Shown: positions 5,561 to 23,252, numbered from the stretch's first letter. The stretch: DNA of 64,000 bases from an uncultured Chloroflexia bacterium (GCA_963751345.1 CAVVUS010000014.1:212601-276600); one strand, 5' to 3'. A program made the numbers and translations. The notes: a model not told the origin generated them from the letters alone.

Positions 5561-6925
5561 TTAGGTCGAGGGTAGAGATGGGGGTCCTGCAGCCGGCTCC
5601 TGGACTTCGAGGTAGGGTCGCGGATTGACCCAATCCTGCAGAGCGGGCACGTGGAGCCCCTCGACACGCATTCCCAGGTGCAGATGCGTCCCGGCAGGAT
5701 CTCCCGCCGGATCGATCAACCCAAGCAAATCTCCTCTCGAGACCAGCGTGCCAATCGACACCTCGATCGTCGAGAGATGTGCGTATAAAAGCGTGATCTC
5801 TTCCCCTCCGGGTCCATAGCTGCGCACTCGAACGTGATAACCATAGCCATCTCGATCCAGCGCAACCTGCGTTACGGTGCCGGCGAGCGACGCGCAGATC
5901 GGGCTTGGCCCGGTCGACGCGTCGGCCAAGCCGAGGTCAACTCCGTTGTGCCCCCCGACCATCCCGTAGGTTTGGTAGTAGGTCTCCTGCTCCTGACCAA
6001 ACACGCGCTCGTAGTGGCGGGATGGTGTGGGCCAGAGCAATGGCATCTGCTGCGGGTCCGGTAGCCTGGGCCGGTTGGCGACTGCCGAGATGACATCCCG
6101 AGGCGTCCCGTCGGTATCCAGCCACGCGATAGGATCGAGCCGTGGATCTCGCGAGCGGAACGGGAAACCGCACGCACCCAGCACACGATCGTACTGGGCG
6201 GTCAACGTCAGGAACTCCGCATACTCACGACCCCGCCGGACAGGAGAGACGCCGGGATCTAGGTCGGCAAACTCGGTCACGATGCAGTCTCGCTGTGGGG
6301 AAGCGTCAAGATACGCCCTTAGAAACCACATAGCACCTTCATACTCACGCATCTCGTCGAGCGAGCGCCAGTAGATATGGAGGGCGACCCAGTCGGCGCT
6401 GTCAAGTGCACCTGCACATTGGTGAAGGAACACGACATCATCGCCGACCGTTGCGACATCCGGATGCGGCCGCCCGACGGCAACAAGCGCAGGAAAACCG
6501 ATCTTGACATCGTAGCCGAATCGGCCGTGTAGACACCGCACGACCTCGCCAAACCATGCCGAGAAGGCCGCTCCATCCTCCCAAGAACGTGTGAGACCGC
6601 GATCGACCCGGTTTGGCTCATCGTGAATCTCGAGGAAGCGCGCGCCGGCATCCAGGAATAGCCCGATTTGGCTTGAGAACTCATCAACGAAAGCCGACGG
6701 GGTCACGGCCTGCCTTGCCGGCGTGGGGCTCAACAGGTGGAGCACAAAGCTATCGGCTCCGGCGTCGCGCCACTTTTGGAGATCCGACACCGGATTGACG
6801 TGGCATCTTAGCCGGACCATGGGCCTATCGGCGCCCGCCAATCCGCTCGCGTAAGCGACGAGATCCGCTCGCCGCACCGGACCTGCCGGGGCAACTACGC
6901 CCGGCGCGGCGTGGCCTACACTCAA
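5561..6925 (-). CDS. fusion protein: clan GH-A-like TIM-barrel domain plus C-terminal M23 peptidase
   Basis: 454 aa. The N-terminal part has GH-A-like motifs (FLEIHDEPN, IVTEFAD). The C-terminal part has M23 signatures (HNGVDL ... THLHLGMRV). A TTG start overlaps the amidase stop (TTGA). Confidence 0.7.
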   Translation of the reverse strand: MSVGHAAPGVVAPAGPVRRADLVAYASGLAGADRPMVRLRCHVNPVSDLQKWRDAGADSFVLHLLSPTPARQAVTPSAFVDEFSSQIGLFLDAGARFLEIHDEPNRVDRGLTRSWEDGAAFSAWFGEVVRCLHGRFGYDVKIGFPALVAVGRPHPDVATVGDDVVFLHQCAGALDSADWVALHIYWRSLDEMREYEGAMWFLRAYLDASPQRDCIVTEFADLDPGVSPVRRGREYAEFLTLTAQYDRVLGACGFPFRSRDPRLDPIAWLDTDGTPRDVISAVANRPRLPDPQQMPLLWPTPSRHYERVFGQEQETYYQTYGMVGGHNGVDLGLADASTGPSPICASLAGTVTQVALDRDGYGYHVRVRSYGPGGEEITLLYAHLSTIEVSIGTLVSRGDLLGLIDPAGDPAGTHLHLGMRVEGLHVPALQDWVNPRPYLEVQEPAAGPPSLPST

Positions 6926-7698
6926 GGGGATGCGCCCTCGATGAAACAGACCAGGCCATTGGCAATGCCCTGGGCCACAACGTTCGGGCGTTGGGTCAAC
7001 AACTCCCGATCATCGAGCATGAAACCAAGCTCGATGATCGCCGCCGGCGTGTTGGGATCTATCTCGTAGTAGGCGTGATAACGTCGCATATCGTACGTGA
7101 TCGTGTAGGGGTCAAAAGCCAGACCGGTCGCCTCTGCATAGTAACGACTCACGCAATCGACAAGCCGGTCCTCAGGGTCAGGAATATAGCTGGATTCAGC
7201 ACGCGCCATCTTGAAGCCGGAACGCCCCTCCACATTGCAGGAATCCGAATGGATGGAGAGCAGCGCATCTGCCTGGAAGCCCTGCAGGCGCGCATCGAAC
7301 TCCTCAAGTTGCTCCACCTCCCAACCGCGTGCCGCCAGCAAGGCCACTACGCGCCGTGCGACGTCCGAGTTGATATCAACCTCCTGGAGTCCGTCGTCAC
7401 AGACTGCGCCGCTGTCGCTGCCGGTATGTCCGGCAATGATACCGACGTGCGGGACGGTGGGCGTTGGGGTGAACTGGGGTACCGGCGTCGTCGTGGGCGT
7501 AGGCACTTCCGTACGGAGGGGGATAACAATTGGGCCCTCTACCTGGGTAAGCTCCCCACTCTCATCCGTCGCCACGGCCACGATGGGAACCAGGCCTGTG
7601 GGCACTGTGAAGGCCGCGATAAAGGCAAGAAATACCACCACACGGACCGCCCAGCCCATTGCCCACGGATCGGAATCCGTCTTCCTTTTTATTGGCAT
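6922..7698 (-). CDS. N-acetylmuramoyl-L-alanine amidase (Amidase_3) with N-terminal membrane anchor
   Basis: 258 aa. The TM segment is AVRVVVFLAFIAAFTV. The amidase pattern reads GIIAGHTGSDSGAV...LLSIHSDS...AAIIELGFM. Confidence 0.85.
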   Translation of the reverse strand: MPIKRKTDSDPWAMGWAVRVVVFLAFIAAFTVPTGLVPIVAVATDESGELTQVEGPIVIPLRTEVPTPTTTPVPQFTPTPTVPHVGIIAGHTGSDSGAVCDDGLQEVDINSDVARRVVALLAARGWEVEQLEEFDARLQGFQADALLSIHSDSCNVEGRSGFKMARAESSYIPDPEDRLVDCVSRYYAEATGLAFDPYTITYDMRRYHAYYEIDPNTPAAIIELGFMLDDRELLTQRPNVVAQGIANGLVCFIEGASP

Positions 7699-7725
7699 TT
7701 GTCCCCATACACCCCTGGATAGCGC

Positions 7726-8514
7726 CTAGCGCATACGGCGCTTCCACTCATCCTTGATCTGGATCTGGCCCCAGTCGTCTCGATGAGTCAGGAAGTCGCG
7801 CAGCAGCCGGCTGAACTTATTCGCCTCGTCCAACATAGGATAGTGCTGGGCCCCGTCAAAGACAAATGAATATACGTTGCGCCCCAACATCGCCAGTGAT
7901 CCCTCATCCGGCGGAGAGATGATGGGATCATCCTGTCCGCTGACGAGAAGGATTGGAAGATCCTGATCCCGGAGCATTTTAACCAGATCCGCCGCAAGCA
8001 CCGAGCGCACACTCCGTACCACAGCTTCCCCGTCGGTCTTTGCAGCTTCCATATCCACTTCTTCGTAGGATTTGAGCCGCCGCCCCAGGATCACCTTCGC
8101 CGGGTTGTCACCACCGCTATAGCTTGCCAGAGCGCGTGTGATACCCTCACCCGACAGAGGGACACTGACCGCCATCACCTGATCCACGCGGTCAGCATGA
8201 GCCATAGCGAAAGAGATCGCAACAACTCCGCCGAGGCCGTGACCGATGATGGGCACCCGCCCGATCCCCATCTGATCCAGGAACAGCTCAACCTGGGCGA
8301 CGTAACCCGGGATATCGTAACGACCGGCAACTCTGTCCGAGTCACCGAATCCCCAGAAATCGAGGGCGTATGCCCGATAGGATGACGACAGCTCGACCAT
8401 CGTGGGCACCCAGTAGCGCCAGGAACCCAGCCAACCGTGCAGAAAGAGCAAGGGCCGACCCCGGCCCAATGCCTCATAGTGCACCAGGCTGCTCTCAAGG
8501 ATAATGGCGCTCAT
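7726..8514 (-). CDS. alpha/beta-hydrolase-fold protein whose nucleophile serine is replaced by glycine (paralogue of 16359..17159)
   Basis: 262 aa. The nucleophile elbow reads IIGHGLGGVV (codon GGC) where GHSxGG is expected. The Asp (GQDDPI) and His (AQHYPMLDE) positions are kept. The N-terminal 60 aa are about 60% identical to the 16359..17159 product. Confidence 0.8.
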   Translation of the reverse strand: MSAIILESSLVHYEALGRGRPLLFLHGWLGSWRYWVPTMVELSSSYRAYALDFWGFGDSDRVAGRYDIPGYVAQVELFLDQMGIGRVPIIGHGLGGVVAISFAMAHADRVDQVMAVSVPLSGEGITRALASYSGGDNPAKVILGRRLKSYEEVDMEAAKTDGEAVVRSVRSVLAADLVKMLRDQDLPILLVSGQDDPIISPPDEGSLAMLGRNVYSFVFDGAQHYPMLDEANKFSRLLRDFLTHRDDWGQIQIKDEWKRRMR

Positions 8515-8575
8515 CGCATGAGTTCACACGTCGAAAGGTTGACCCGCCCGCACGTTCAAGCGGCGATCACCCTCA

Positions 8576-8962
8576 TCAGAGGCTCCGACCCTTCTCAGTA
8601 TCCCCCAGGACACGCTCGACTTGCTCCGTGAGGTCGTCCGGTGCAAAAGGCTTGAGGATGTAGTCAACCGCGCCCACGTCGAGCCCCTCTTGGATCTCGC
8701 TCTCCTGTCCCTTTGCCGACAGGAAGATCACAGGCACATCCTTGGTCTCGGCTCGCTTCTTCAGCGCTTCACAGGCCTGATAGCCCGTCATCCTGGGCAT
8801 TCGCACGTCCATAAGAATCAGATCGGGATTGACCTCAAGCGCTTTCTCGACAGCCTCCGCTCCGTTTGCGACCAGGACCACCTCATGGCCTGCGAACTGG
8901 AGCGTGAAGGCAATCAGCTCCCGGATGTCACGCTCATCTTCAGCAACCAGGATCTTCGCCAT
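8576..8962 (-). CDS. single-domain response regulator (CheY-like receiver)
   Basis: MAKILVAEDERDIRE...LILMDVRMPRMTGY...VIFLSAKG...DYILKPF. I prefer the ATG at 8962, which overlaps the kinase stop by 23 nt, over the ORF-track start at 9010. Confidence 0.9.
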   Translation of the reverse strand: MAKILVAEDERDIRELIAFTLQFAGHEVVLVANGAEAVEKALEVNPDLILMDVRMPRMTGYQACEALKKRAETKDVPVIFLSAKGQESEIQEGLDVGAVDYILKPFAPDDLTEQVERVLGDTEKGRSL

Positions 8963-11900
8963 ACTTGGACTCCTTGTCAGCGCCATTTTCGCTGATTTCA
9001 GCATAGACATCAGCCGCCAGCTCGTCCACGGAGAACGGTTGTGGCACGAAGCGGATACCGGTCTGATCCTTCAGCTTTTCCTGTAGTTCTGCAGCCTGAC
9101 TCTGCGCAGCAATGTCGGACCCATAGGTCACCACCACCGGGACCTTGGACGTTCTACGATCCCGCCTGAGGCGATCCAGGAATAGATACCCGTCGATGTC
9201 CGTCAGTGCAAGGTCAAGCACCACCATCGCAGGGCACAGATGACGGGCCAGCCCGAGCGCTCGCTCCCCACGCATTGTCGCCCTCACCGCGATGCCCCTC
9301 GTCCGTAGAGCTGAACGCAGTTGGTCCAGCGATTCACCGGTGCCGCCGGCCAACAGGACCACTTCGTGTGGTCGCAGGTTGCGTCGAATGACATCAAGGA
9401 GTTTCTGCTCATCCAGCGGCTTATTGAGGTAGTCGAATACGCCTAATGCTCGCCCACGGTCGCGGTCCGAGACCACCGAGACGATGGCCACCGGGATATC
9501 AGCGGTCTCCGGATCTCGCTGGAGCAACTGCAACACCGCAAGGCCATCAAGATCCGGAAGACGGATATCCAGCGAGATGAAATCAGGAAGCTTCTCACGC
9601 GCCATCTGCAGCGCCGCCTCACCTGAGGCAGCTTTCAGCACCTTCATGCCCTCTGACTCGAGCGTGACCTGAAGCAGCCTGGAAATCTCCGGATCGTCCT
9701 CCACGACTAAGATCGTAGGTACCGGCTCGGTGGTCACCGGTGGAGGCAACACACCCACATCCTCGGTGGGCTCACCTTCTGCAAGAGGAATCGAGAAGGT
9801 GAAAATGCTACCCTTTCCGAGCTCGCTTTCAAGCCAGATGCTGCCCCCGTGCATCTGGATCAGCGAAAGCGTGATAGCGAGTCCCAGGCCGGTGCCCGAC
9901 ACTTCATAGACAGCAGGGTCGTCTTCGACGCGGTAGAACCTCTCGAAGATGCGTTTCTGGTTCTCGGGCGCTATGCCGATGCCCGTGTCTGCCACCGCCA
10001 CGTGTAGTGAAGCCTCGCGGACGTAGGTATAGACAGTAACCCGTCCACCTGCCGGAGTGTACTTGTAGGCATTGCCAATCAGGTTCAGCAGGATTTGTAT
10101 GAGCCGGTCGGGATCTCCATAGACCTTGGGCAACCCCGGGGGAAGAACAGTGAAAAACGTCTGATCCTTCTCCGCGACCCTTGGCTCAACGTCGGCAGCA
10201 ACTTGGGTGATGATCTCTTCCATTGAGACCGGACGGCTCAAGAGCTCGATCCGCCCTTGCTCAATCCGGGAAATATCCAACAGATCGTTGACGAGGTTCG
10301 TCAAGCGGTCCGCATTGGTCTTCACCCGCCTGAGAAACTCCAACTGCATCTCCGGAAAGGTCCCTGCGGCGCCGTTGAGCATCAGATCGACGTAGCCGAC
10401 AATGGAGGTCATAGGCGTCCGGAGCTCGTGAGAGACCGTGGAGACGAAATCGGTTTTCGCTCGATCGGCCTCGATCTCAGAGGTGACATCCCTAAAGACA
10501 GAGACGACCCCAAGGAATTCCCTCGTAGTCGATACCACGGGGGAGATATGGACGCTCACGTAGCGGCGATCAACCGTAAGCCGCCGCGTAAGAATGGCGC
10601 CGGCGGCGTAGCGTTCCGGATACGTACGCCAGTTCACGATCGGCGAAAGCCACTCGTGTACATCACTGCTGAACAATCCCAAGATCTCGGTTTGGTCTCG
10701 TCCTAACGCTTGCTGACGCATAATGGAGAGTATCTTCTCCGCAGCAGCGTTGAAGAGGACAATGTCACCACGCTCATCCGCAACCATCACGCCGTCCGCG
10801 ATATCCTCCAGGATGGCCTGGTCCTTGGCTGCATCGATCTGCTGTGTGCGTAACATCGTGCCGAGCCGCTCCGCTTGCTCGCGGATAAGACGATAGAGTT
10901 CGGCGTTGTTCAGGGCATTTCCCAACTGGACGGCAGCAGCCTCGACCAGACGTAACTGCGCCTCGTCAAAGACGTCTACCAGCGGCGACTCAAATAGGAT
11001 AACGCCAAGCGACTCTCCGGCGCTGCTGACGATGGGAACAGCCATCACCGACAAAGCCGACCCGACCTCCACCAGGCCGAACCGATTCTCGAGGCGTACA
11101 TCAGGAATCACCAACGATGTGCGTTTTTCCAGCACCCACCCCACAAGGCTGGTGCTGCGATCGAAAGCCACCAACCTGCCCCCCGGAGGGATTGGCTCCG
11201 CATGCCCAATCGCCGCGCGGTAGGATAGCTGCCCCGTGCTGTTGTCGAGCAGGATGACAGAACTGCGCGAAGCTCGGACGGCTCGCTGCAGCAGCATCAA
11301 AGCTTGGCTCAACACGAGATCAATATCAAGGCTCGCCACCAGCTCCGAAGCAATATGATAGAGCACCTCGGAACGATCCCGTTGGAAGCGCAGGCGCTCC
11401 AGCGCCTCAGCAAGCTCCTGCGTGCGCTCCGAAACGCGCTCCTCCAATTCCTCATTGAAGTGCTTGACTTCCTCAAAGAGACGCGCATTGTCTACTGCCA
11501 CCGATACCTGATCCGCCAATGCCATCAGTGTCGCGACATCCGCTGCAGAAAACTCCCCCTTTTGCTTACGGTCGGCAGTGAGAATGCCCACGGACCGACC
11601 CTCGGCCATCAGAGGCACCACGATGGAGGAGCCCATTGGGATAGGCGTGGAGGCAAACCGAGGATCATCCTCGGTATCCTCGGCCACAATCGGCATCCCC
11701 GTGTGAATCACTTCACGAATAAAGCCCGCCTCACCAGTCATCGAGACGTCGGCAGGGTAGTACTCCAATGCATAACCCGAAGACGCCATCGGCGTAAAGG
11801 CTTGCTCAGTGCGGTTCTGGAGGAATATGGTGGAGAAGTCGTAGCCCAGGAGATTCGTAACAGACTGCACAACGGTGTTCAGGACCAACGGCAGATCCAG

Positions 11901-13460
11901 TTTGGTCGTAATTGAGCGGTTTAGCTCGTTGAAGAGCTGCAACGTTGTGACCTGCTTGCGCAGGCTTTCCACCAGGCGCTGATTCTCGATGATCTGCGCG
12001 ACCTGGGACGCAAAAACCTCGATGACTTCCGCCGTCATCGCTGTTGGCGCGAGCCCATCTCTGGGGCGATCCACCGACATGATGCCGATGATATCTTCGG
12101 CGCTGCCACGCAGCGGCACAAAGAAGACGTCCTCGTTATGCCAGAGCGTGAGATCCTCGTCTACGTCAAGCCTGTCTGGGACAAAGACATCGAGACCCTC
12201 GGTGAGAGCGCGGAACTGCTCCGGTATATAATAACACTGGCCAAGTCTGAAGCGGTCCTGGAACAGGCGTCGGACCCGATCCCAGCGAAGTCGAACTCTC
12301 TTACGCTTCTCCAGCTCCGTCAAGGGGATACCGGCCCCGGCCACGCGACGAAGAGAGTTGCCCTCCAGCACGCTGATCAGCACGAGGTCGAAACCCGTGC
12401 CTTCCTGCACTGCATAGGCCACGTCCAGCAGGACGTCCTCCAACGGGCGCTCCGAGCGCATCGTGCGGCTGACTTCCAGCAGAAGCGACATCTGCTCAGC
12501 CCGCTGACGCATCTGCTCACCACGTCGGAGCTGCTCCTCAAAGCGACGCGCATTGCCCACGGCGATCGCTGCCTGGCCCGACAACGCCTCGACAAGGGTA
12601 ACGGCATCAGACGTGAAAGCATCCGATCGGGTTGACTGAACCAGGATTGAGCCCACCTGGTGCTGTTCGTAGAACACTGGCGTCACCAACATGCTACGAA
12701 TTGGACCCAGTACTTCGTCAATCGGCCCACCCGCGAAGTCCGGGAAATAGAGGGTCTCCCCCGCACTGAACCACCCCCTGAGTTCGCTCCTTTTCTCCCC
12801 TTCCAAGAGCGCAGTAGCAATCTTGGCGAGATCCTCGTCATTGTAACCGCTGGCGGCGTAGATCTGGGCACTGCCATCCGTAAAAAGCGCGATGAAGCCG
12901 GCCTCAGCCCGCAAGGCTCCCAGCGCATCGTCCAGAACCACGCGCAAGATGTGATCGAGATCGATCGTCGATGTGATCTCGGTCGTGACGTGCCTCAGTG
13001 CCTCTATCTGACGGAGGTGCGCGGACTCGCTCTGCTGCCGGCCCGTGATCCCCACCACTGCAAGCCGGGCCATCTCACCGATCCAGGTTGCAGCCGCCAG
13101 GTCACTATCGCTATACGGACCGTCATCGCGGCCTAGCACGAGCCAACCGCGCCAACTGTCGACTGTCACGGGAACAAACAGGCTGCCGGTAGGGGACCCA
13201 TCTGCGGCATCGGGACCAATGGATAGAGGGGCCTCGGGCGAGCCGGCCCGTGCGAGTATCTGCTGCCAGGTGCCGGAATCCGACACCCGCGATCCTGATC
13301 CGACCTCGACTTTGGGCCGAGGTGCGGACCAGATCCAGGCACCGGCGTCGGCAGCGAGCTCGCGCATCGCGGCCTCCAACGCAATGGACCACGCCTGATC
13401 CACGCGAGAGGCTGCGGCGAACTGCTCTCCGACCGCCTTGAGCCCTAAGGTGTGCGGCAA
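8940..13460 (-). CDS. multi-GAF/PAS hybrid sensor histidine kinase with two C-terminal receiver-like domains
   Basis: 1506 aa with a TTG start. There are at least five GAF-like segments (ITSTIDLDHILRVVLDDA, SRTMRSERPLEDVLLDVA, NRSITTKLDLPLVLNTVV, ASELVASLDIDLVLSQAL and an N-terminal one) and a PAS domain (ILEDIADGVMVADERGDIVLFN). The H-box is FVSTVSHELRTPMTS and the ATPase boxes are DTGIGI and GTGLGLAI. REC1 reads TILVVEDDPEI...SLDIRLPDLDG. REC2 lacks the acidic pair (VVLLAGGTG). Confidence 0.9.
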   Translation of the reverse strand: MPHTLGLKAVGEQFAAASRVDQAWSIALEAAMRELAADAGAWIWSAPRPKVEVGSGSRVSDSGTWQQILARAGSPEAPLSIGPDAADGSPTGSLFVPVTVDSWRGWLVLGRDDGPYSDSDLAAATWIGEMARLAVVGITGRQQSESAHLRQIEALRHVTTEITSTIDLDHILRVVLDDALGALRAEAGFIALFTDGSAQIYAASGYNDEDLAKIATALLEGEKRSELRGWFSAGETLYFPDFAGGPIDEVLGPIRSMLVTPVFYEQHQVGSILVQSTRSDAFTSDAVTLVEALSGQAAIAVGNARRFEEQLRRGEQMRQRAEQMSLLLEVSRTMRSERPLEDVLLDVAYAVQEGTGFDLVLISVLEGNSLRRVAGAGIPLTELEKRKRVRLRWDRVRRLFQDRFRLGQCYYIPEQFRALTEGLDVFVPDRLDVDEDLTLWHNEDVFFVPLRGSAEDIIGIMSVDRPRDGLAPTAMTAEVIEVFASQVAQIIENQRLVESLRKQVTTLQLFNELNRSITTKLDLPLVLNTVVQSVTNLLGYDFSTIFLQNRTEQAFTPMASSGYALEYYPADVSMTGEAGFIREVIHTGMPIVAEDTEDDPRFASTPIPMGSSIVVPLMAEGRSVGILTADRKQKGEFSAADVATLMALADQVSVAVDNARLFEEVKHFNEELEERVSERTQELAEALERLRFQRDRSEVLYHIASELVASLDIDLVLSQALMLLQRAVRASRSSVILLDNSTGQLSYRAAIGHAEPIPPGGRLVAFDRSTSLVGWVLEKRTSLVIPDVRLENRFGLVEVGSALSVMAVPIVSSAGESLGVILFESPLVDVFDEAQLRLVEAAAVQLGNALNNAELYRLIREQAERLGTMLRTQQIDAAKDQAILEDIADGVMVADERGDIVLFNAAAEKILSIMRQQALGRDQTEILGLFSSDVHEWLSPIVNWRTYPERYAAGAILTRRLTVDRRYVSVHISPVVSTTREFLGVVSVFRDVTSEIEADRAKTDFVSTVSHELRTPMTSIVGYVDLMLNGAAGTFPEMQLEFLRRVKTNADRLTNLVNDLLDISRIEQGRIELLSRPVSMEEIITQVAADVEPRVAEKDQTFFTVLPPGLPKVYGDPDRLIQILLNLIGNAYKYTPAGGRVTVYTYVREASLHVAVADTGIGIAPENQKRIFERFYRVEDDPAVYEVSGTGLGLAITLSLIQMHGGSIWLESELGKGSIFTFSIPLAEGEPTEDVGVLPPPVTTEPVPTILVVEDDPEISRLLQVTLESEGMKVLKAASGEAALQMAREKLPDFISLDIRLPDLDGLAVLQLLQRDPETADIPVAIVSVVSDRDRGRALGVFDYLNKPLDEQKLLDVIRRNLRPHEVVLLAGGTGESLDQLRSALRTRGIAVRATMRGERALGLARHLCPAMVVLDLALTDIDGYLFLDRLRRDRRTSKVPVVVTYGSDIAAQSQAAELQEKLKDQTGIRFVPQPFSVDELAADVYAEISENGADKESKYGEDPGC

Positions 13461-13486
13461 TTTCCCTCCAACCGTGCTAGCCCTGG

Positions 13487-14377
13487 CTAGCTGGTGCCCC
13501 GGCGGCGCGCCTCGGCGGCGGCCTCGGTGATCTCACGGATATCCGTGAACGGTCCATCCTCGGTCGTTAATATACCGACGGCCAAGCTCATCAACGGGGT
13601 ATGAAGCTCGTTACCTTCGTCGTCCTTGGTGACGAGATAGCCTTGCATCCGGGTCATGAAGTCGTAGTGCGTGCCGACATCTTTGCTGAACCGCCGGACG
13701 ATCCCGTCCCTGAGCGCCTCGGCCCTTGACGCTCGTGAGATAACCACGAAATCGTCGCCGCCAATGTGCCCCACAAAGTCGTCTGGGGTACCAAACGTGT
13801 CGACGGCCTCATTCAACACGATCCCCGTGAAGCGCAACACGTCCCCGCCGGCTACAAAGCCATAGGCCTGGTTAAAGGCATCCAATCCCTTGATCCCGAT
13901 ATAGAGAATGGACCAGTCATCGGCGCCCATGAGCTCGCGAAGCTGCTCCTCTATCAGACGTCCACTTGCCAGCCCCGTGCTGGGGCTGGTCAGACTGGCG
14001 ATCTCCGCGCTCTTGATCGTGTTGCGCACGCGCAGACGGAGTTCCTCGACATCGAACGGCTTCGTGATGTAGTCGTCCGCACCGAGCTCGAGACCACGGA
14101 TCTTGTCGCTGCGCTCATCTTTCTGCGTCAAGAAGATAATCGGAATGTGGCTGGTTCTCAGGTTCGTTCGGAGGCGACGACAGACCTCATACCCATCGAT
14201 ATCGGGCAGCATAATATCGAGCACGATCACGTTGGGCATTTTCTGCCGCGTCATGTTAAGGGCATCATTCCCAACCGGCGCAACGAAGACCTCATAACCC
14301 TGCGATTTGAAGTAGAGCTGCAGCATGTTGGAGATGTCTGCATCATCTTCCACGACGAGGATGCGACCTTCACTCAT
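13487..14377 (-). CDS. response regulator with a short GGDEF-like output domain carrying GGDDF
   Basis: 296 aa. The receiver reads RILVVEDDADI...VLDIMLPDIDGY...DYITKPF. The output domain resembles a diguanylate cyclase (TGLASGRLIEEQL...FNQAYGFVAGGDVL...GHIGGDDFVVI). No RxxD I-site is seen upstream of the motif. Confidence 0.8.
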   Translation of the reverse strand: MSEGRILVVEDDADISNMLQLYFKSQGYEVFVAPVGNDALNMTRQKMPNVIVLDIMLPDIDGYEVCRRLRTNLRTSHIPIIFLTQKDERSDKIRGLELGADDYITKPFDVEELRLRVRNTIKSAEIASLTSPSTGLASGRLIEEQLRELMGADDWSILYIGIKGLDAFNQAYGFVAGGDVLRFTGIVLNEAVDTFGTPDDFVGHIGGDDFVVISRASRAEALRDGIVRRFSKDVGTHYDFMTRMQGYLVTKDDEGNELHTPLMSLAVGILTTEDGPFTDIREITEAAAEARRRGTS

Positions 14378-14451
14378 CCGATACCTCCTAGTTGGGAAAT
14401 CGAATCCATCACCACCTGCCCCCTGGAACAGGGAGGAGCGAAATCCATAAC

Positions 14452-15705
14452 CTAATCCCGCGGATAGAGCCTGGGATGCAACTGCTCCCCATTCTCCAGC
14501 TTGAGATGATCACTATCCTCCCAAAGCACGTTCCTGCGGATCACATACCGCTCAGGAGATGCAAGAAGGACGACGTCGGAATCGATCATGCGAGCGGGGT
14601 ACACAAGTATGCCGGACCCGATCCGAACGTGATGACCAACAGCGCCGCCGAGCGCCGTCATCCCCGTTTCCTCCAGCTTGCCGTGAAAGTGCGATCTGAT
14701 CGACTTATCCACAAGGTTGAAGTCCGTGAACGTGTTCCCTGCACCGATGAACGATCCTCGTCCAACGACACACATCTGGAGACACGTATTCTGCGCCACC
14801 ATACAATCTTCCATCAGGATCGTGCGATAGAGCGAGGCCCTGAAGGGAAGGAATGACCGATCTCCGACGACACTGAGCATCAGTTGGCAACCCTGATCGA
14901 TCGTCACGTTATTGCCGATGTAGCAGTTGCCGATCACGGCGCCCGCACCGATTGAGACGTTGTCGCCAATGACAGTCGGGCCCTGGATCGTGGCGGTAGG
15001 ATCGATGCTGCAGTTTCTGCCGACCTTCACCAACAGAGACGAAGTGAGAACCTGTTTGCGCTCCAGCATGCCGCGCCAGAGAAGCTTGAGGTTCAGCCCA
15101 ACGTCACATTCGGCCTGCTGCTCAAAGCGTGCGCCGATGGCAAAGATGCCAAAGTCGATATTAGCGTGCAGGACCTGCAGCCAATGCTCGACCGAGAGGA
15201 AGGGCTTGGTTGGTAGGTCATAGACAAGATCCCCGTACTGGTCAGACATGTGCGTCGGCACGTGATAAAAGCCAACCTCGCGTGTCTCGGTGTCCATTAC
15301 CAGAGGCCGGACGACGGGCTCGACGCCATAGGGGTAGTACCATAGGTCCGCGACATAGTGCGCACCTTCTTGGCGAATGCCCCGTTGTAGATACAGCGCG
15401 TGCCCTACGATGGCAGGATCGTCCAACGCAAAAGCGACCTGACACGCCTTGCCGGAAGCTCGAGCCCGAAGGATAAACTCGTCGATGAAAACCTCATCGA
15501 AGTAGAGGTTATCGCGATAGACGAGGGTCTCCTGCCGGTCAGTTGGGAGATCGGATAGCGCCTCGACTTCCCGTTCCTCGGTAGTGTACCGCGCCAACAC
15601 GTCGCGCTGAAAAAGCCAGAGGGGCTTCGTCAACACGCTCAACTCGCGTGCCGGCTCGTTGAATGGAGGAATCTTCCGTCGATCTCGTAATATGACCTTA
15701 TGCAC
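14452..15705 (-). CDS. left-handed beta-helix (hexapeptide-repeat) protein, function unknown
   Basis: 417 aa. The C-terminal half has imperfect hexapeptide repeats (IDPTATIQGPTVIGDNVSIGAGAVIGNCYIGNNVTIDQGC...). The N-terminal half vaguely resembles GlmU-like sugar nucleotidyltransferase folds, but I recognise no diagnostic motif. Confidence 0.55.
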   Translation of the reverse strand: MHKVILRDRRKIPPFNEPARELSVLTKPLWLFQRDVLARYTTEEREVEALSDLPTDRQETLVYRDNLYFDEVFIDEFILRARASGKACQVAFALDDPAIVGHALYLQRGIRQEGAHYVADLWYYPYGVEPVVRPLVMDTETREVGFYHVPTHMSDQYGDLVYDLPTKPFLSVEHWLQVLHANIDFGIFAIGARFEQQAECDVGLNLKLLWRGMLERKQVLTSSLLVKVGRNCSIDPTATIQGPTVIGDNVSIGAGAVIGNCYIGNNVTIDQGCQLMLSVVGDRSFLPFRASLYRTILMEDCMVAQNTCLQMCVVGRGSFIGAGNTFTDFNLVDKSIRSHFHGKLEETGMTALGGAVGHHVRIGSGILVYPARMIDSDVVLLASPERYVIRRNVLWEDSDHLKLENGEQLHPRLYPRD

Positions 15706-15726
15706 CTGAGATCCTTCCGCCCGCGA

Positions 15727-16362
15727 CTAACGCAGCGGCTCCCTCTCGACCAAGAAGGTACAGACGGGATCGCCACAGGCAATACACGTCGTCTCTTCCA
15801 CCAGAAACCTCTGGCCGCGACTCACCCAGAAGAGCGTCTCCTCCAGGAGGCCAACGGGAAAGGCACACACCGGCTCATCAGTCCTGCGACGGGCACAGAA
15901 CCCGCACGTCTCAAGAACGAAAAAAAAACCGCTGCTTCCCCTCCCGAGCGTCACGCTTTGATCCGAGTAACGGTTGAAGATCTCGGCCAGGACCTCCAGT
16001 CCTATCCGAGCTCGCAGGCTGACGGGCAGGACACGTAGGGCGACATCGGCGAAGCCAAGAATACCGCCGAATCCCTCAACCCAGTACTTGAAGCTCTCGC
16101 GGCCTGCTTGCCGCGCCAGCCGATGGCCACCTTGAACCCCATAGATACTCTCGATCGCCTCAAACAGACGACCGACCTCAACGAAAGACAGTCCCGGCTC
16201 AAAATCCGCAGGGGGCGTCCCATCGATAAGGTGGGCAAGCCTCGCCGTCGTCAGGACGGCACTGCTCCCGTTCTCACCCAGAACTTCCTTGACTGCCAGT
16301 AACAGGATGCGCGAGATCTTGTTAGGAAACCCTGCACGGTGTTGGACCGAATCCGCGCTCAC
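15727..16362 (-). CDS. V4R (4-vinyl-reductase-type) domain protein
   Basis: 211 aa. The C-terminal pattern LETCGFCARRR...VCAFPVGLLEETL...VEETTCIACGDPVCTF is typical of COG1719/V4R proteins. The start overlaps the upstream hydrolase stop (ATGA). Confidence 0.7.
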   Translation of the reverse strand: MSADSVQHRAGFPNKISRILLLAVKEVLGENGSSAVLTTARLAHLIDGTPPADFEPGLSFVEVGRLFEAIESIYGVQGGHRLARQAGRESFKYWVEGFGGILGFADVALRVLPVSLRARIGLEVLAEIFNRYSDQSVTLGRGSSGFFFVLETCGFCARRRTDEPVCAFPVGLLEETLFWVSRGQRFLVEETTCIACGDPVCTFLVEREPLR

Positions 16363-17159
16363 GTGTCGGCCAAAAACCCGAGAATCACTTCGTGGAAATG
16401 CTGTGTCTCGTCCAGCATAGGGAAATGACCGGACTCCTCAAAGTAATGCACGACAGCCGGAGTCCCGTGGTCACCGATCCCATTCCGGAGAACGTCGCCC
16501 TGTTTAGGATCGACGATATTGTCTTTGCGTCCGTAGATCCCCATCGTTGGGACCCGGCATTCGTGTAGGCGCGGGCGAAGGTCCGTCTGGCGCAGATCCT
16601 CGATACTCCGCGAGAACGATTCAACGGTTGTGCGAGAGAGATCCCTGGACAGCATTCCCCAGAGCGTGCGCCAGTCCTGGGCATAGGTCGTCGAAAGCAT
16701 CTTGATCATCGCGGGAAGCAGGCCCGGAATCGCATAGAGTAGCTGGGCGACGCGGCGGCGTCCGGAGAACTTCAACAGCATACTCAGGCCGGACCCGACA
16801 ATCGGCGATCCCACGACGGCGACTTTGGAGACCCGCTCCGGATGCTGGAGTGTGAGCGATAGGGAAACCGTTCCGCCCATCGAATGTCCCATCACACGGG
16901 CGCTGGACAGCCCCATCCGCTCCATGAACTGATTCACCATATCAACATATTCGTCGACGGAGAAGGCACCCTGCTTTGCGGACTCGCCAAAACCCCAGAA
17001 GTCGAGAGCGTACGTCTTATACTGGTGTTCGGCCAGATACTCCATCGTCGACAGCCAATAATTCCACGAGCCGAGCCAGCAATGCAACAACACCACCGGC
17101 CTGCCGCGGCCAAAGGTCTCATAGTGAACGATGCCCCTGTCCGTCACAATCGAGCTCAT
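16359..17159 (-). CDS. alpha/beta hydrolase (catalytic triad apparently intact)
   Basis: 266 aa. HCWLGSWNYW...ALDFWGFGES, nucleophile elbow VMGHSMGGTV, and a C-terminal SGHFPMLDE histidine loop. Confidence 0.85.
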   Translation of the reverse strand: MSSIVTDRGIVHYETFGRGRPVVLLHCWLGSWNYWLSTMEYLAEHQYKTYALDFWGFGESAKQGAFSVDEYVDMVNQFMERMGLSSARVMGHSMGGTVSLSLTLQHPERVSKVAVVGSPIVGSGLSMLLKFSGRRRVAQLLYAIPGLLPAMIKMLSTTYAQDWRTLWGMLSRDLSRTTVESFSRSIEDLRQTDLRPRLHECRVPTMGIYGRKDNIVDPKQGDVLRNGIGDHGTPAVVHYFEESGHFPMLDETQHFHEVILGFLADT

Positions 17160-17177
17160 CGCAAGAAGATCACACCC

Positions 17178-17203
17178 TTACGCGTTCAAACGTATTGACG
17201 TCC
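17178..17203. repeat. short copy (3 units) of the 8-bp-periodic CGT repeat
   Basis: TTACGCGT TCAAACGT ATTGACGT, with CGT at 17183, 17191 and 17199. It lies in the 45-nt gap between the GTPase stop and the hydrolase start. Confidence 0.5.
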
Positions 17204-17204
17204 A

Positions 17205-17738
17205 TTACTCCGCGTCGACGAGTTCCAGGATAGCGTACAACAGCTCCAATAGGACCTGCTTCACCGTATCCTTACTGTTGGCAATGCACGGGATGACTTT
17301 GATTCCTGGCTCCACCCGCAATACGATGCGCAGATCCTCCGGGGACCAGGCATCTATCAAATCCTGCTTGTTTGCCGCGACAATATAGGGCACGGGAGAG
17401 TAACTGCGGAAGGTATCGAGAATCCTTCGGGCCTCACGGAATGTCTCGGGACGCGTGCTATCCACCATGACGACGAAGCCCAGCATCCCCTCCGAGAGAA
17501 TCTCCCACATGAAATCGAAGCGCCGCTGTCCCGGCGTGCCGAAGAGATAGAGGATGAGCTCCTCATCCACGGTGATTCGACCGAAGTCCATCGCGACGGT
17601 CGTCTGATCCTTGATCCGCTCCGACACCTGAGTGATCTTGCGTTCGGTGGCGACGACGTCAATCTCACTGATGGCCTGGATGAACTCGGTCTTGCCAGAT
17701 GAGAACGGCCCCGTTACAACGATCTTCACCGTCTGCAT
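17205..17738 (-). CDS. small Ras-superfamily GTPase of the CvnD / COG2229 type
   Basis: 177 aa. G1 is GPFSSGKT. TTVAMDFGRI...LYLFGTPGQRRFDFMW is the hallmark stretch of conservon CvnD-like GTPases. G4 is NKQD. Confidence 0.85.
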   Translation of the reverse strand: MQTVKIVVTGPFSSGKTEFIQAISEIDVVATERKITQVSERIKDQTTVAMDFGRITVDEELILYLFGTPGQRRFDFMWEILSEGMLGFVVMVDSTRPETFREARRILDTFRSYSPVPYIVAANKQDLIDAWSPEDLRIVLRVEPGIKVIPCIANSKDTVKQVLLELLYAILELVDAE

Positions 17739-17741
17739 GGA

Positions 17742-18596
17742 CTACAGCTCCCGAATACGCCGGATCAGCCTCTGGATGATGCCTCGCTTGACCGCTGGTC
17801 GGCGCATTTGAGGAGCCGCAGCAGCTTTCTCGACGCTCTCTCCGTCCGCAGGACGAGGACTGGGGGGAGCGGCAGCCGGTCGCGCCGGCCGGACCATCTC
17901 CACAAGCCCCGCCTGCAGCAGACCGTAGACGATCTTGCGGATCTGAAGCTCGTCCATATTGTTGTAGTGGGCGACCTGCTGAATAGTGTTGCGCGGGTTG
18001 ATAAAGGAGATCACCCGCCATTCCTCGACGCTCAGGTTGATGTCACGCAGGGGCGTCGATGGTCGCTCGGCAAACTTCAGCGCGATATCCAGGTCAGGAA
18101 GCTCATCACGGAGCAGTTCCCATTCCTTGAGCCGCCGGTTACCCTCCATAATCAGGTTTTCCAGGGCGATGGAGGTTGTGATCTTGCCCTGCACCGGCAG
18201 TTCGGAGGCCTCAAACCTGAAGGTGCCGCGGTTCCAGGAGATTACCTGATAGACGAGGGTGACAATGTATTCGCGCACGTGGCGCATGACAACCTGCTGC
18301 TTGAGACGACCGCTGGTAATCAGGACCCTGGCAATGTCCTGATCGGATTTCCCGGGCATGTTCTCCCGGATCATCCGGACATGATCAGCGGTAAAGACGC
18401 CGGCCCGCTGAAGAATTACGGGGAGATCGTCATCGATACCGGCTTTCGCCGCATGGATCAGCTTGCCCTCACGGAAGCACAGATAGGCCTCGTCCTCGGG
18501 ACCATGGAGATAGAGAGTGCCACTCTTGCGCGCCAAGTTGATAAGATTCAGCAACTGGGTGATACCAAAGTCCTCGATCTTACCCCTGAGTGCCAT
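17742..18596 (-). CDS. PATAN/DUF4388 domain protein with a C-terminal winged-helix-like segment
   Basis: 284 aa. The N-terminus LRGKIEDFGITQLLNLINLARKSGTLYLHG fits the DUF4388 pattern. The C-terminal part (EEWRVISFINPRNTIQQVAHYNNMDELQIRKIVYGLLQAGLVEMV) resembles DUF742/CvnC-type wHTH. The stop is 3 nt before the GTPase start. Confidence 0.7.
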   Translation of the reverse strand: MALRGKIEDFGITQLLNLINLARKSGTLYLHGPEDEAYLCFREGKLIHAAKAGIDDDLPVILQRAGVFTADHVRMIRENMPGKSDQDIARVLITSGRLKQQVVMRHVREYIVTLVYQVISWNRGTFRFEASELPVQGKITTSIALENLIMEGNRRLKEWELLRDELPDLDIALKFAERPSTPLRDINLSVEEWRVISFINPRNTIQQVAHYNNMDELQIRKIVYGLLQAGLVEMVRPARPAAAPPSPRPADGESVEKAAAAPQMRRPAVKRGIIQRLIRRIREL

Positions 18597-18684
18597 ATGC
18601 GACCGTCCTTAGTATGACCTGACGAGACAGGGAAGGAGCCGGTTCACCTACAATGATCGATCCGTCCCATAAGACTTTGTGATC

Positions 18685-18712
18685 ATTATAATGGTCTTCT
18701 AACATTCAGCAA
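18685..18712 (-). promoter_or_regulatory. sigma70-like promoter candidate (TTGCTG-N16-TATAAT) heading the DUF4388-GTPase array
   Basis: On the minus strand, TTGCTG lies at 18712-18707 and TATAAT at 18690-18685. The leader of about 85 nt contains the inverted repeat AATGATC-N22-GATCATT. Confidence 0.55.
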
Positions 18713-20775: not shown

Positions 20776-22122
20776 ATGATTCGTACGGCGGAAAGCGAAA
20801 CAGTGCCCACAATACCAACAACCATCCATACGGTGACTCCTGTGGCGAACTCACGACTCAGTGGCTTCTACCAGCGCTCCATCGAAGAACGCATCAAAGT
20901 CATTCGGGACCAGGTCTCCTTGTCGGACGATGAGGTCCGGGTTCTGAGCGCGGGTATGGGGCTGCAGGCCGATCAGGCCGATCATATGGTCGAGAACGCC
21001 CTCGGTCTGTATGCCTTGCCGCTGGGCATTGCCACGAACTTCGTCGTAAACCACAAAGACGTGCTGGTGCCTATGGTGATCGAAGAGCCCTCGGTGATCG
21101 CCGGCGCATCTCTGGCTGCCAAGCTGGCACGCGCGGGGGGCGGGTTCCACGCCGAAGCGGACGATCCTGTGATGATCGGCCAGATCCAGCTCGTCGACGT
21201 CGCCGACCTCCAGGCTGGGCGCGAAGCGATCCAAACGCACAAGTCCGAGTTGATGGCACTCGCCGATGAGGTCGATCCGGTGCTCGTCGGGCTTGGCGGG
21301 GGCGCTAGGGACATCCACGTACGTGCCCTGGACACGCCGAAGGGTCCGATGTTAATTGTGCACTTGCTCTTCGACGTCCGGGATGCGATGGGGGCCAATG
21401 CGGTGAACACGGCGTGCGAGCAGCTTGCGCCAAAGCTTGGCGCGCTCACCGGCGGCAGGCCCTATTTGCGCATCCTGAGTAATCTGGCAGATCAACGGCT
21501 GGCGCGGGCTACGGTAACGATACCTGAGGCTGCGTTGGCGTTCAGAGATTTCGAGGGAAGTGAGGTGGCCGAGGGCATCGAGTTGGCCTGGGCCTTCGCT
21601 GCCGCTGATCCCCATCGCGCCACAACACACAACAAGGGCATCATGAACGGAGTCGATGCCGTAGTATTGGCCACCGGCAACGATTGGCGCGCTGTTGAGG
21701 CAGGCGCGCACGCCTATGCCGCCCGGAATGGAACGTATACCAGCCTGAGCACGTGGCGCCGCGACGGCAAAGGGAATCTCGTCGGAACTCTTGAAATGCC
21801 GCTGGCCCTTGGTACCATCGGGGGCGCGACGCGGGTCCACCCCACGGCCCAGGTGGTGCTGAAGGTCCTTGGTGTCGAGAACGCGAGAGAGCTTGCAGAG
21901 ATTGTCGTGAGCGTGGGGCTGGCTCAGAATCTGGCCGCCATCCGGGCCCTGGCTACGGAGGGCATCCAGAAGGGCCATATGAGTCTGCACGCTCGCCAGG
22001 TGGCGATGGCGGCAGGCGCCCAGGGACCAGAGATCGATCAGGTCGCCCAAGCTATGATTGCTGATCATACGATTCGTATTGACTACGCCAAGACGCTGCT
22101 TGATGGACAGCGCAAATGTTGA
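20776..22122 (+). CDS. mvaA: hydroxymethylglutaryl-CoA reductase, class II
   Basis: 448 aa. It is collinear with the Pseudomonas mevalonii HMGR as I remember it (VLVPMVIEEPSVIAGAS, DVRDAMGANAVNT, ATHNKGIMNG, GNDWRAVEAGAHAYA, LATEGIQKGHMSLHAR). Confidence 0.92.
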   Translation: MIRTAESETVPTIPTTIHTVTPVANSRLSGFYQRSIEERIKVIRDQVSLSDDEVRVLSAGMGLQADQADHMVENALGLYALPLGIATNFVVNHKDVLVPMVIEEPSVIAGASLAAKLARAGGGFHAEADDPVMIGQIQLVDVADLQAGREAIQTHKSELMALADEVDPVLVGLGGGARDIHVRALDTPKGPMLIVHLLFDVRDAMGANAVNTACEQLAPKLGALTGGRPYLRILSNLADQRLARATVTIPEAALAFRDFEGSEVAEGIELAWAFAAADPHRATTHNKGIMNGVDAVVLATGNDWRAVEAGAHAYAARNGTYTSLSTWRRDGKGNLVGTLEMPLALGTIGGATRVHPTAQVVLKVLGVENARELAEIVVSVGLAQNLAAIRALATEGIQKGHMSLHARQVAMAAGAQGPEIDQVAQAMIADHTIRIDYAKTLLDGQRKC

Positions 22123-22134
22123 GAGGAGTGGTGT

Positions 22135-23196: not shown

Positions 23197-23252
23197 GACT
23201 ATCTCCCCCGTGGGAGGGAGTTGGAACCAGTAAGAAGGGACAGAGAACTCGA

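Follow-up and report, generated by a model that had tools for sequence, protein, structure and literature searches.

To what kind of signalling system does a small Ras-like GTPase belong when its gene lies in one run with hydrolases, receivers and a histidine kinase? To our knowledge, such GTPases are understood in bacteria in two settings only, the polarity systems of Myxococcus and Bdellovibrio and the conservons of actinobacteria. The question is raised here by a 64,000-nucleotide stretch of DNA from an uncultured Chloroflexia bacterium (GCA_963751345.1, CAVVUS010000014.1:212601-276600; "the window" below), in which eleven consecutive open reading frames (ORFs), all on the minus strand at 5561-18596, include an MglA-family GTPase. 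Chloroflexota, a phylum of filamentous bacteria most of which are uncultured, abound in sludge, sediments and soils. The first nine genes (window positions 7726-18712, minus strand) are best explained as a conserved unit, one copy of a class-wide Anaerolineae operon, which would be a third, class-wide setting for bacterial small Ras-like GTPases.

A first-pass annotation, made from the sequence alone, had described eleven co-directional genes with named domains. The ORF table, Pfam and NCBIfam confirmed every main domain label, and the ten junction lengths given there agreed exactly with those recomputed from coordinates (3, 45, -4, 21, 74, 26, -23, 61, 27 and -4 nt, in order from the PATAN gene). 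The conserved part of the array comprises the following features:

18685-18712, minus strand: predicted array promoter, with -35 TTGCTG (18712-18707), a 16-nt spacer and -10 TATAAT (18690-18685), from the sequence and a 12-genome alignment
18600-18611, minus strand: TAAGGACGGTCG box (Shine-Dalgarno AAGGA plus flank), ending 3 nt before the PATAN start codon, from the alignment
17742-18596, minus strand: PATAN (DUF4388/PatA_N) protein, 284 aa (PF14332, E 1e-25)
17205-17738, minus strand: MglA-family small GTPase, group-5-like by motifs, 177 aa (Pfam ATP_bind_1, Ras, Arf)
16359-17159, minus strand: ABH1, alpha/beta-hydrolase with an intact Ser-Asp-His triad (Pfam Abhydrolase_1, E 7e-31)
15727-16362, minus strand: stand-alone V4R protein (H-NOX/V4R/Bet3 fold) with a conserved Cys cluster (Pfam V4R)
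14452-15705, minus strand: LbH protein, a nucleotidyltransferase-like N-domain plus left-handed beta-helix, 417 aa (Pfam Hexapep, LbH_EIF2B, GMPPB_C)
13487-14377, minus strand: response regulator, REC plus degenerate GGDEF domain (GGDDF) (Pfam REC, E 2.5e-30; GGDEF, E 4e-7)
8940-13460, minus strand: soluble hybrid histidine kinase, 1506 aa, with four GAF, PAS, HisKA, HATPase and two REC domains (Pfam)
8576-8962, minus strand: single-domain CheY-like receiver (Pfam REC, E 1e-30)
7726-8514, minus strand: ABH2, Ser-less alpha/beta-hydrolase paralogue (GHGLGG for GxSxG), last gene of the conserved array

Conservation of the array and its promoter

Whether these genes belong together was judged from their arrangement in other genomes. 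One genome per GTDB species was scanned with conserved GTPase peptide patterns, yielding at least 600 matched stretches, of which the best 80 were kept. Almost all of these best 80 are labelled Anaerolineae or Chloroflexota, their GTPases are 71-88% identical to the window copy, and the groups named among them are Anaerolineales, Thermoflexales, Caldilineaceae, Aggregatilineales, Promineifilaceae, Bellilinea, Longilinea and Thermoflexus. The array on a contig labelled Cellvibrionaceae (L076, JBLIMP010000005.1) is typical of Anaerolineae, its GTPase being 76% identical to the window copy; the contig is most likely mis-binned.

In 84 non-redundant GTPase-centred species loci, ORFs were called and assigned with family hidden Markov models (HMMs) built from the window proteins; the denominators that follow are those GTPase-centred loci with enough sequence for the gene in question. 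The PATAN gene lies directly upstream of the GTPase gene in 79/79 loci. ABH1 is found in 59/77, V4R (downstream of the GTPase, on the same strand) in 45/74, LbH in 49/67, the REC-GGDEF-like regulator in 40/59 and the downstream GAF kinase in 35/54, while 35 of 64 loci have an additional Shikimate_DH-fold Rossmann protein that is not in the window. The commonest architecture, seen in 23 loci, reads PATAN-GTPase-ABH1-V4R-LbH-Rossmann-REC-GGDEF-like-GAF kinase. These loci were too short to reach past the 5-6-kb kinase gene, and a metagenome scan with an ABH2 alignment was used for the far end, giving a set of 46 ABH2-centred loci longer than 5 kb. There, the kinase is upstream of ABH2 in 37/37 loci, a single REC gene is directly upstream of it in 39/42, and ABH2 closes the array in all 32 distant loci having enough downstream sequence. 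The neighbourhood comparison that the first-pass annotation had proposed thus upholds a nine-gene linkage, from PATAN to the Ser-less hydrolase, across several Anaerolineae orders.

Such a linkage might simply be inherited gene order without functional coupling, with the array forming a class-level synteny like the blocks around it; indeed, in the closest relatives (L001-L015) the flanking housekeeping genes are syntenic as well, namely those for HMG-CoA reductase (HMGR) and an SMC-like ATPase upstream and SSB, DUF3467, translin-like and PGM genes downstream. From L016 onward, however, this flanking synteny is gone and the PATAN-to-ABH2 array persists, which argues for functional clustering rather than mere inherited order. 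Start/stop overlaps are also conserved, and the paralogous hydrolases and V4R copies recur in the array context only. We therefore regard inherited order as very improbable and retain the conserved operon as the preferred reading. No description of the full nine- to eleven-gene array was found in the openly readable full-text literature, in keeping with the annotation's remark that it knew of no described system of this composition.

The promoter candidate proposed from the sequence at 18685-18712 fared well. It was judged by phylogenetic footprinting of 12 SMC-PATAN intergenic regions from different genomes, and both hexamers and their spacing, tTTGCT[gc]-N-TTATAAT, were kept in 12/12 aligned regions, whereas the remainder of these spacers (99-370 nt) could not be aligned. 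The TAAGGACGGTCG box was nearly invariant in the same 12/12 upstream regions. A scan for consensus promoters gave chance-level counts and did not call this site, because its -35 element matches the consensus at only 3/6 positions. The comparative evidence that the promoter and ribosome-binding region are real is good, and the best explanation of the former is a conserved sigma-70-type promoter that would drive the nine genes. No hairpin was found within any junction, as the annotation had said of intrinsic terminators; the 13 terminator-like hairpins detected, a chance-level count (10.2 +/- 3.0 expected), all fall inside ORFs. Between 5000 and 21000, neither the leader nor the junctions gave an Rfam match to a riboswitch or other RNA at gathering scores. 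The ABH1 stop codon overlaps the V4R start by 4 nt, an arrangement shared by L001, L005, L007 and L168 that suggests translational coupling.

All nine core proteins lack transmembrane segments and are predicted to be cytoplasmic. PADLOC returned no match for PATAN, GTPase, ABH1, V4R, LbH or ABH2, and only generic REC and ABC-ATPase matches otherwise; with no match among the core genes, identity as an anti-phage defence system was rejected.

The GTPase, its PATAN partner and Roadblock

The GTPase carries the motifs GPFSSGKT (G1), QTTVAMDF (switch I; xTTVAMDF across the family), GTPGQ (G3) and NKQD (G4), of which G3, G4 and the switch I Thr-Thr are invariant in 88/88 sequences. Its G1 (GxxxxGK[ST]), G3 (xxPGQ) and single-domain Ras-superfamily size place it in the MglA family, and the nearest solved structure is Thermus MglA (3t12, E 3e-8), in the alignment with which the "ERT" of MglA corresponds to "QTT". 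The best 120 database matches are all at least 77% identical. In the published classification (Wuichet and Sogaard-Andersen 2014, PMC4316618), GTPGQ and a Thr replacing the Arg finger define MglA groups 2-5, whereas group 1 has TVPGQ; CvnD, the conservon GTPase, makes up group 2 with a G4 of NxFD, the canonical NKxD occurs in groups 1, 4 and 5, and group 5 occurs in Chloroflexi. With GTPGQ, a Thr beside the G2 Thr in place of the group 1 Arg finger and a canonical NKxD, the array GTPase falls within groups 2-5 rather than group 1, and NKQD in 88/88 sequences excludes the NxFD of group 2. It is therefore best called, by its motifs, a group-5-like MglA; the label "CvnD-type" given to it earlier does not survive the NKQD motif and the Thr-Thr switch I, and likeness to CvnD goes no further than the Pfam family.

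The PATAN protein matches PF14332 with 90.4 bits (cutoff 25) over residues 5-160, and continues with a winged-helix-like middle, a variable Pro/Ala-rich linker and a C-terminal basic amphipathic helix. A profile of the C-terminal region found among PDB entries only the MarR winged helix, weakly (E 0.003). DUF742 (CvnC) was considered as a hidden occupant of this winged-helix-like region; a Pfam search at E up to 10 came back empty, and the idea is at most a lead. At the extreme C terminus (17742-17800), the helix (K/Q)(R/K)S(L/V)VxRLIxRIRxL, with the core SLVNRLIxRIRSL, is kept in almost all orthologues, including L001-L049, and resembles peptides used for membrane targeting or docking. That PATAN genes occur near group 1/5 mglA genes and near mglB has been reported before (PMC4316618, where Makarova et al. 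2006 is cited for the same neighbourhood), and a Myxococcus study on regulators that work with MglA on type IV pili counted PATAN proteins among its candidates but did not take their analysis further. Both the PATAN-MglA pairing and orphan MglA genes are on record; the literature searched has no account of the full array.

The nearest non-orthologous relatives of the GTPase (P0350-P0441, 42-60% identity) include multidomain fusions that resemble conflict or STAND-type signalling proteins. Ten long relatives were scanned, revealing HEAT-GTPase, TIR-HEAT-GTPase, nSTAND1-GTPase, GAF-GTPase and TIR-HEAT-GTPase-REC fusions; a PATAN-GTPase fusion, sought as Rosetta-stone evidence, was found in none of these ten. 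The fusions to GAF (P0359) and to REC (P0402) physically link domain types that the array encodes separately, and lend modest support to the switch mechanism proposed below.

In known conservon and MglA modules, a GTPase of this kind has a Roadblock/MglB partner; none was found here. No array product matched Roadblock (Robl_LC7) or DUF742 in Pfam, so that the four-gene conservon core is lacking and an ordinary conservon is not indicated. A Roadblock HMM built from related loci matched none of the ORFs in the window, no Roadblock gene thus lying within four genes of the GTPase as in coupled MglA-MglB systems. The first-pass statement that no Roadblock gene is present holds throughout these 64 kb. 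A Roadblock domain hidden in the array was also rejected, given the empty HMM search and hhalign probabilities of at most 1% for the Roadblock profile against the PATAN, V4R, LbH, Rossmann, REC-GGDEF, REC, ABH1 and GTPase alignments.

Related loci tell more. In 16/84, a true Robl_LC7 gene (Pfam E 8.6e-21) lies beside the GTPase gene or immediately beside a V4R paralogue: it directly follows the GTPase in L055, L058, L065, L068 and L072; it opens the order Roadblock-V4R-REC-GGDEF-like-PATAN-GTPase in L021, L032, L034, L043 and L049; and it forms a convergent Roadblock-V4R-(GT2) unit in L018, L020, L022, L024, L026 and L027, the GT2 glycosyltransferase being confirmed by Pfam in L018 only. The V4R copy adjoining Roadblock in 11 loci, beside the PATAN-GTPase pair, is a distinct paralogue (mean identity within the subgroup, 65%); such pairs lie at L018:11330-12353, L022:11343-12366, L021:6241-7305 and in eight further loci, and in L018 and L022 the two genes overlap or are 16 nt apart. 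The earlier proposal that V4R and a hydrolase sit in the place of Roadblock is not borne out by these 16 loci, in 11 of which Roadblock stands beside V4R: V4R accompanies Roadblock and does not replace it. This is an MglA/MglB-type family whose members do not all have an adjacent MglB, as with the 59 of 449 MglA genes that a published survey found orphan. The Roadblock/MglB protein, a GTPase-activating protein (GAP), would be part of the system in some relatives, and in the source genome is encoded elsewhere or absent. No description of a Roadblock-V4R-GTPase association was found in the openly readable full-text literature.

How, then, does the array compare with the two known settings? The conservon (AGPS) core consists of the kinase CvnA, the Roadblock protein CvnB, the DUF742 protein CvnC and the GTPase CvnD, with or without the P450 CvnE or the GAF protein CvnF; kinase, Roadblock and DUF742 control the GTPase, and the stand-alone GAF and P450 accessories modulate a kinase without a sensor. 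The array, too, joins a histidine kinase with an MglA-family GTPase bearing GTPGQ, and has stand-alone cytoplasmic accessories beside a kinase that lacks an extracytoplasmic sensor. It differs in having PATAN in the window but neither Roadblock nor DUF742, in its G4 motif (NKQD against NxFD), in using, instead of the membrane kinase CvnA, a hybrid multi-GAF kinase that is soluble and comes with cognate receivers, and in its hosts, Chloroflexota rather than Actinomycetota.

With MglA systems, the array shares a GTPase whose nearest solved structure is MglA, a PATAN neighbour as in some group 1/5 members and, in the 16 related loci, an adjacent Roadblock/MglB, although the window itself has no MglB within four genes. 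In published accounts, the Frz chemosensory system acts on the MglA/MglB/RomR polarity module of Myxococcus xanthus; that the array also encodes receivers and a kinase along with its GTPase is reminiscent of this. The partners in the array (two hydrolases, V4R, the nucleotidyltransferase-like LbH protein, a receiver with a dead GGDEF domain and a multi-GAF hybrid kinase) are, by contrast, known from no MglA system, there are no motility genes among its annotated neighbours, and its hosts are filamentous Chloroflexota. At the level of receivers, the details of the Frz and polarity modules involve FrzX, FrzZ and RomR.

Accessory proteins, receivers and kinase

The V4R protein scores just above the Pfam threshold (PF02830, 32.5 bits; cutoff 31), and its AlphaFold2 model (pLDDT 90.7) has the two-layer fold of helices and four strands of the V4R/H-NOX/Bet3 superfamily. 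Foldseek ranks H-NOX/sGC-beta first (E 6e-7, TM-score about 0.6), followed by TRAPPC3/Bet3, PoxR/MopR and MJ1460, with a probability of 1.00. H-NOX haem sensors are defined by a proximal His ligand and a YxSxR motif that contacts the haem propionates. A 33-sequence alignment of V4R contains neither an invariant or near-invariant His nor a YxSxR motif; instead, C156, C166 and C193 are invariant. Membership of the BchJ family (TIGR02019) is not supported: the alignment spans the full length, but its 27.4 bits fall short of the cutoff of 74.3. Judged by sequence and model together, this is a predicted V4R-type binder of a hydrophobic ligand and not a haem sensor, and the small-ligand-binding domain named in the first-pass annotation is consistent with the modelled fold.

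Stand-alone H-NOX sensors regulate an adjacent histidine kinase or diguanylate cyclase. The array V4R is of the same fold class as these and as the V4R domains of PoxR, MopR and DmpR (Foldseek E 6e-7 to 1e-3), is also stand-alone and is encoded beside a kinase and a GGDEF-type protein, and in five loci a V4R paralogue directly precedes the REC-GGDEF-like gene. Unlike H-NOX, it has no invariant His and no YxSxR, so that H-NOX-type haem binding is not expected; it has a V4R-like Cys cluster and is linked to a small GTPase, which those systems are not.

That link to a GTPase admits another reading, in which V4R, as a homologue of Bet3/TRAPPC3, directly regulates or scaffolds the MglA-type GTPase, whether as guanine nucleotide exchange factor (GEF), GAP cofactor or in the manner of a GDP dissociation inhibitor (GDI), together with Roadblock where present, any ligand being secondary or regulatory. 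In 40/54 loci a V4R gene is found no more than 5 kb from the GTPase gene. Its placement takes three independent forms: behind ABH1 in 37 loci, immediately behind the GTPase in 6 to about 10, and immediately beside Roadblock in 11. Seven reduced loci (L010, L035, L048, L051, L060, L074 and L086) keep PATAN, GTPase and V4R while losing hydrolase, LbH and kinase; the closeness of Roadblock and V4R in L018 and L022 would also fit. Homology between V4R and Bet3 is published, and Foldseek matches the array protein to TRAPPC3/Bet3 and to chains of TRAPPII-Rab complexes (E 1e-4 to 1e-3). The best structural matches, however, are H-NOX sensors and not Bet3; absence from about 26% of loci speaks against an obligatory GEF; no prokaryotic V4R protein is known to contact a GTPase; and in an Asgard study TRAPPC3/V4R proteins were judged to be ligand binders. 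On balance we consider direct regulation by V4R unlikely. The same doubt attaches to its fullest form, in which an Anaerolineae Bet3/V4R-fold protein, often with Roadblock, would directly regulate an MglA-type GTPase as the bacterial counterpart of TRAPP Bet3, longin/roadblock and Rab, and the operon around it would have taken on, as ligand-gated accessories, an eIF2B-epsilon/GMPPA-like pseudo-nucleotidyltransferase and a hydrolase/pseudo-hydrolase pair. TRAPP combines Bet3 and longin subunits into a GEF for Rab1 and Rab11, and 11 related loci bring together a Bet3/V4R fold, the longin-related Roadblock and a Ras-superfamily GTPase; the likeness is one of gene adjacency and fold only, the window has no Roadblock, and its V4R is nearer to H-NOX than to Bet3. 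The adjacency of Roadblock, V4R and GTPase is nonetheless a new comparative lead on whether a TRAPP Bet3-type subunit worked with small GTPases before eukaryotes. A word-based search for V4R gave 106 proteins, for which every source name given was Anaerolineae or Anaerolineales.

In the reading we prefer, V4R would be a ligand-binding accessory, like the hydrolase. ABH1 has GHSMGG in 65/65 orthologues, with the Asp and His positions kept, and is predicted to be catalytically intact. In ABH2, which is 32% identical to ABH1 (E 5e-49), GHGLGG replaces GxSxG, and the nucleophilic Ser is Gly in 7/8 aligned rows (four of them from the near-identical L001-L004), with Asp and His kept; the annotation's "serine-less hydrolase paralogue" was thus an apt label. 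The ABH2 C terminus (7726-7760) bears a conserved basic tail, K(D/E)EW(K/Q)RR(M/T)R, which ABH1 lacks. Small alpha/beta-hydrolases act in signalling in RsbQ-RsbP of Bacillus subtilis and in D14/KAI2, a precedent for an active and a dead hydrolase serving as ligand processor and receptor. Likened by description to these, the array pairs its hydrolases with a GTPase and a phosphorelay, not with a PP2C phosphatase or an F-box protein.

The LbH protein has Pfam matches on its C-terminal half only, with none for residues 1-220. Its AlphaFold2 model is poor (pLDDT 52.6, from 32 close homologues); all Foldseek matches are two-domain proteins of nucleotidyltransferase plus LbH, such as ST0452, GlmU and GMPPA/B, with low TM-scores. 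The N terminus reads KVILRDRRKIPPF (N-domain ILRDRRKIPPF) where a GxGxR(L) signature is expected, and NCBIfam matches to nucleotidyltransferases/acetyltransferases of the GlmU, ST0452 or GMPPB type are far below their cutoffs and cover the LbH part only. With low confidence, we would call it probably a non-catalytic pseudo-enzyme of the GMPPA/eIF2B-gamma/epsilon architectural type. The protein is highly conserved, with 65-95% identity among its best 120 homologues. NCBI records name orthologues "multidrug transporter", a misannotation, and the source gene call of 394 aa is shorter than the 417-aa form with a GTG start that homologues support. The extra Shikimate_DH-fold Rossmann protein (about 367 aa) lies between LbH and the REC-GGDEF-like gene in L005 (11923-13026) and 34 other loci; its gene is absent from the window, where this place is a 74-nt gap (14378-14451), and from the closest relatives.

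Might these proteins form a metabolic operon instead, in which ABH1, V4R, the nucleotidyltransferase-like LbH protein and often the Rossmann protein make or modify a small molecule or a sugar-nucleotide-derived envelope component, and the GTPase and two-component genes regulate it or merely adjoin? The intact triad of ABH1, the resemblance of LbH to GlmU/ST0452/GMPPB-type enzymes, the Shikimate_DH-fold protein after LbH in 35/64 loci, and the GT2 glycosyltransferase after Roadblock-V4R in L018 (with a similar-sized ORF in L022) would all be at home in such an operon. Yet LbH lacks the GxGxR signature and its N-domain is not recognised by Pfam, ABH2 and the GGDEF domain appear dead, and the Rossmann gene is dispensable, being absent from the window and 29/64 loci. 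Moreover, the "enzyme" genes always lie between the GTPase and the receivers and not beside transporters or other pathway genes. A metabolic role strikes us as an improbable account of the array, and we continue with the signalling reading.

Its phosphorelay side consists of two receivers and a kinase. In the REC-GGDEF-like protein, all 51 aligned sequences retain LD(I/V)xLPD around the phospho-acceptor Asp, whereas the GGDEF motif is not kept: the most frequent forms are GGDDF (15), GGDNF (11) and GSDDF (4), with no tabulated GG[DE]EF. The window protein has GGDDF in place of the GG[DE]EF of diguanylate cyclases, and PDB diguanylate cyclases align their GGEEF with it at an E of only 4e-4; the GGDEF domain is accordingly predicted to be degenerate and dead. 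The hybrid kinase has no transmembrane-like segment outside a GAF domain. The ORF of the CheY-like receiver extends to 9010; orthologues have 125 aa, and its start is probably the ATG at 8962.

A candidate cytoplasmic switch and the genes beside it

Taken together, the array may be a cytoplasmic switch that combines a G protein with a two-component system and uses ligand-binding enzymes and pseudo-enzymes as accessories, a reading we place slightly ahead of all its competitors combined. Its proposed mechanism draws on analogy with the Myxococcus polarity module, the conservons and stand-alone H-NOX sensors. Cytoplasmic small-molecule cues would be read by the GAF and PAS domains of the kinase and by the stand-alone binders (hydrolase, V4R and LbH); the hybrid kinase would phosphorylate both receivers; the receivers and accessory proteins would then set the nucleotide state of the GTPase or its choice of partner; and the GTP-bound GTPase would act via PATAN, whose C-terminal amphipathic helix suggests recruitment to the membrane or a docking site. 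The set of partners, with a predicted active and a predicted dead hydrolase, a V4R/H-NOX-fold binder, a putative pseudo-nucleotidyltransferase, a receiver with an apparently dead GGDEF domain and a multi-GAF kinase, is unusually rich, and gives concrete, testable protein pairs with which the wiring of bacterial G proteins to phosphorelays could be studied.

Several observations weigh against so integrated a switch. The conservation comparison covers Anaerolineae only, and within it PATAN-GTPase alone is obligatory (79/79), all else being modular: about a dozen loci carry only PATAN, GTPase and sometimes V4R, and the share of loci lacking V4R is the 26% or so given above. The reduced locus L010 (4525-10077; GTPase 85% identical) reads PATAN-GTPase-V4R-REC-amidase-M23-SSB, without ABH1, LbH, REC-GGDEF-like, GAF kinase and ABH2, and could reflect natural deletion or an assembly artefact. 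In L001-L004 (GTPase 88% identical; e.g., L001:13274-15404), the 4.5-kb multi-GAF kinase gene is missing, and the REC-GGDEF-like, REC and ABH2 genes still adjoin despite its absence. The structural assignment of LbH comes from a low-confidence model, and beyond the conserved promoter it is solely the short or overlapping junctions that suggest co-transcription.

What the switch acts upon was answered in the first-pass annotation by the last two of the eleven genes:

6922-7698, minus strand: N-acetylmuramoyl-L-alanine amidase with an N-terminal membrane anchor (Pfam Amidase_3)
5561-6925, minus strand: M23 peptidase whose N-terminal 300 aa have no assignment (Pfam Peptidase_M23, E 6e-14)

There, a hydrophobic signal processed by the hydrolase and bound by V4R was to pass through the GTPase to the phosphorelay, and the co-transcribed amidase and M23 peptidase were then to remodel the peptidoglycan. 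The eleven co-directional genes with short junctions and no junction hairpin, the triad of ABH1 and the ligand-binding fold of V4R agree with this, as does the position of the amidase gene, which follows ABH2 directly in 5/5 ABH2-centred loci whose ABH2 is at least 60% identical to the window copy, these being the closest relatives in that set, and in L001 and L168. In loci with ABH2 less than 60% identical, however, the amidase follows it in 0/32, and the M23 gene was found in four loci only (L008, L010, L092 and L094). In close relatives, the amidase travels with the SSB/DUF3467/translin-like block, and L010 keeps amidase, M23 and SSB there without kinase or hydrolases. The amidase is also the only product with a transmembrane-like segment (residues 11-27), whereas the core is wholly cytoplasmic. 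From the 0/32 count, the four M23 loci and L010, it follows that both genes belong to the flanking synteny block; they are lineage-specific neighbours and not members of the module, although they may be co-transcribed with the array in the source genome. Peptidoglycan remodelling is therefore not a conserved output. The earlier model is, in our estimation, even less probable than direct regulation by V4R or a metabolic operon, and the idea that the system controls cell-wall hydrolases is corrected by the comparison.

A promoter-like site on the minus strand at 7832-7859 (TTGACG-16-TATGTT) falls inside the 3' end of ABH2. Lying about 135 nt ahead of the amidase start, it could allow separate transcription of that gene, though as a match it is at chance level. 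The "GH-like" label once attached to the N-terminal part of the M23 protein could not be kept, the sole match there being Glyco_hydro_cc at E 0.05.

On the other side of the array, the window encodes on the plus strand at 20776-24482, divergent from the SMC-like gene, an HMG-CoA reductase (Pfam) followed by ORFs of 353 and 409 aa. Related loci have at the same positions an HMG-CoA-synthase-like gene, a thiolase gene and a DUF35/OB_ChsH2 gene, an archaeal-type entry to the mevalonate pathway; this block is syntenic in near relatives only. Farther away, the segment 46000-57000, probably a polysaccharide-synthesis island, has a G+C content of 0.51-0.56, against about 0.60 elsewhere, and encodes GT1, GT2 and GT4 glycosyltransferases, a Wzt-like ABC ATPase and an FkbM-type methyltransferase.

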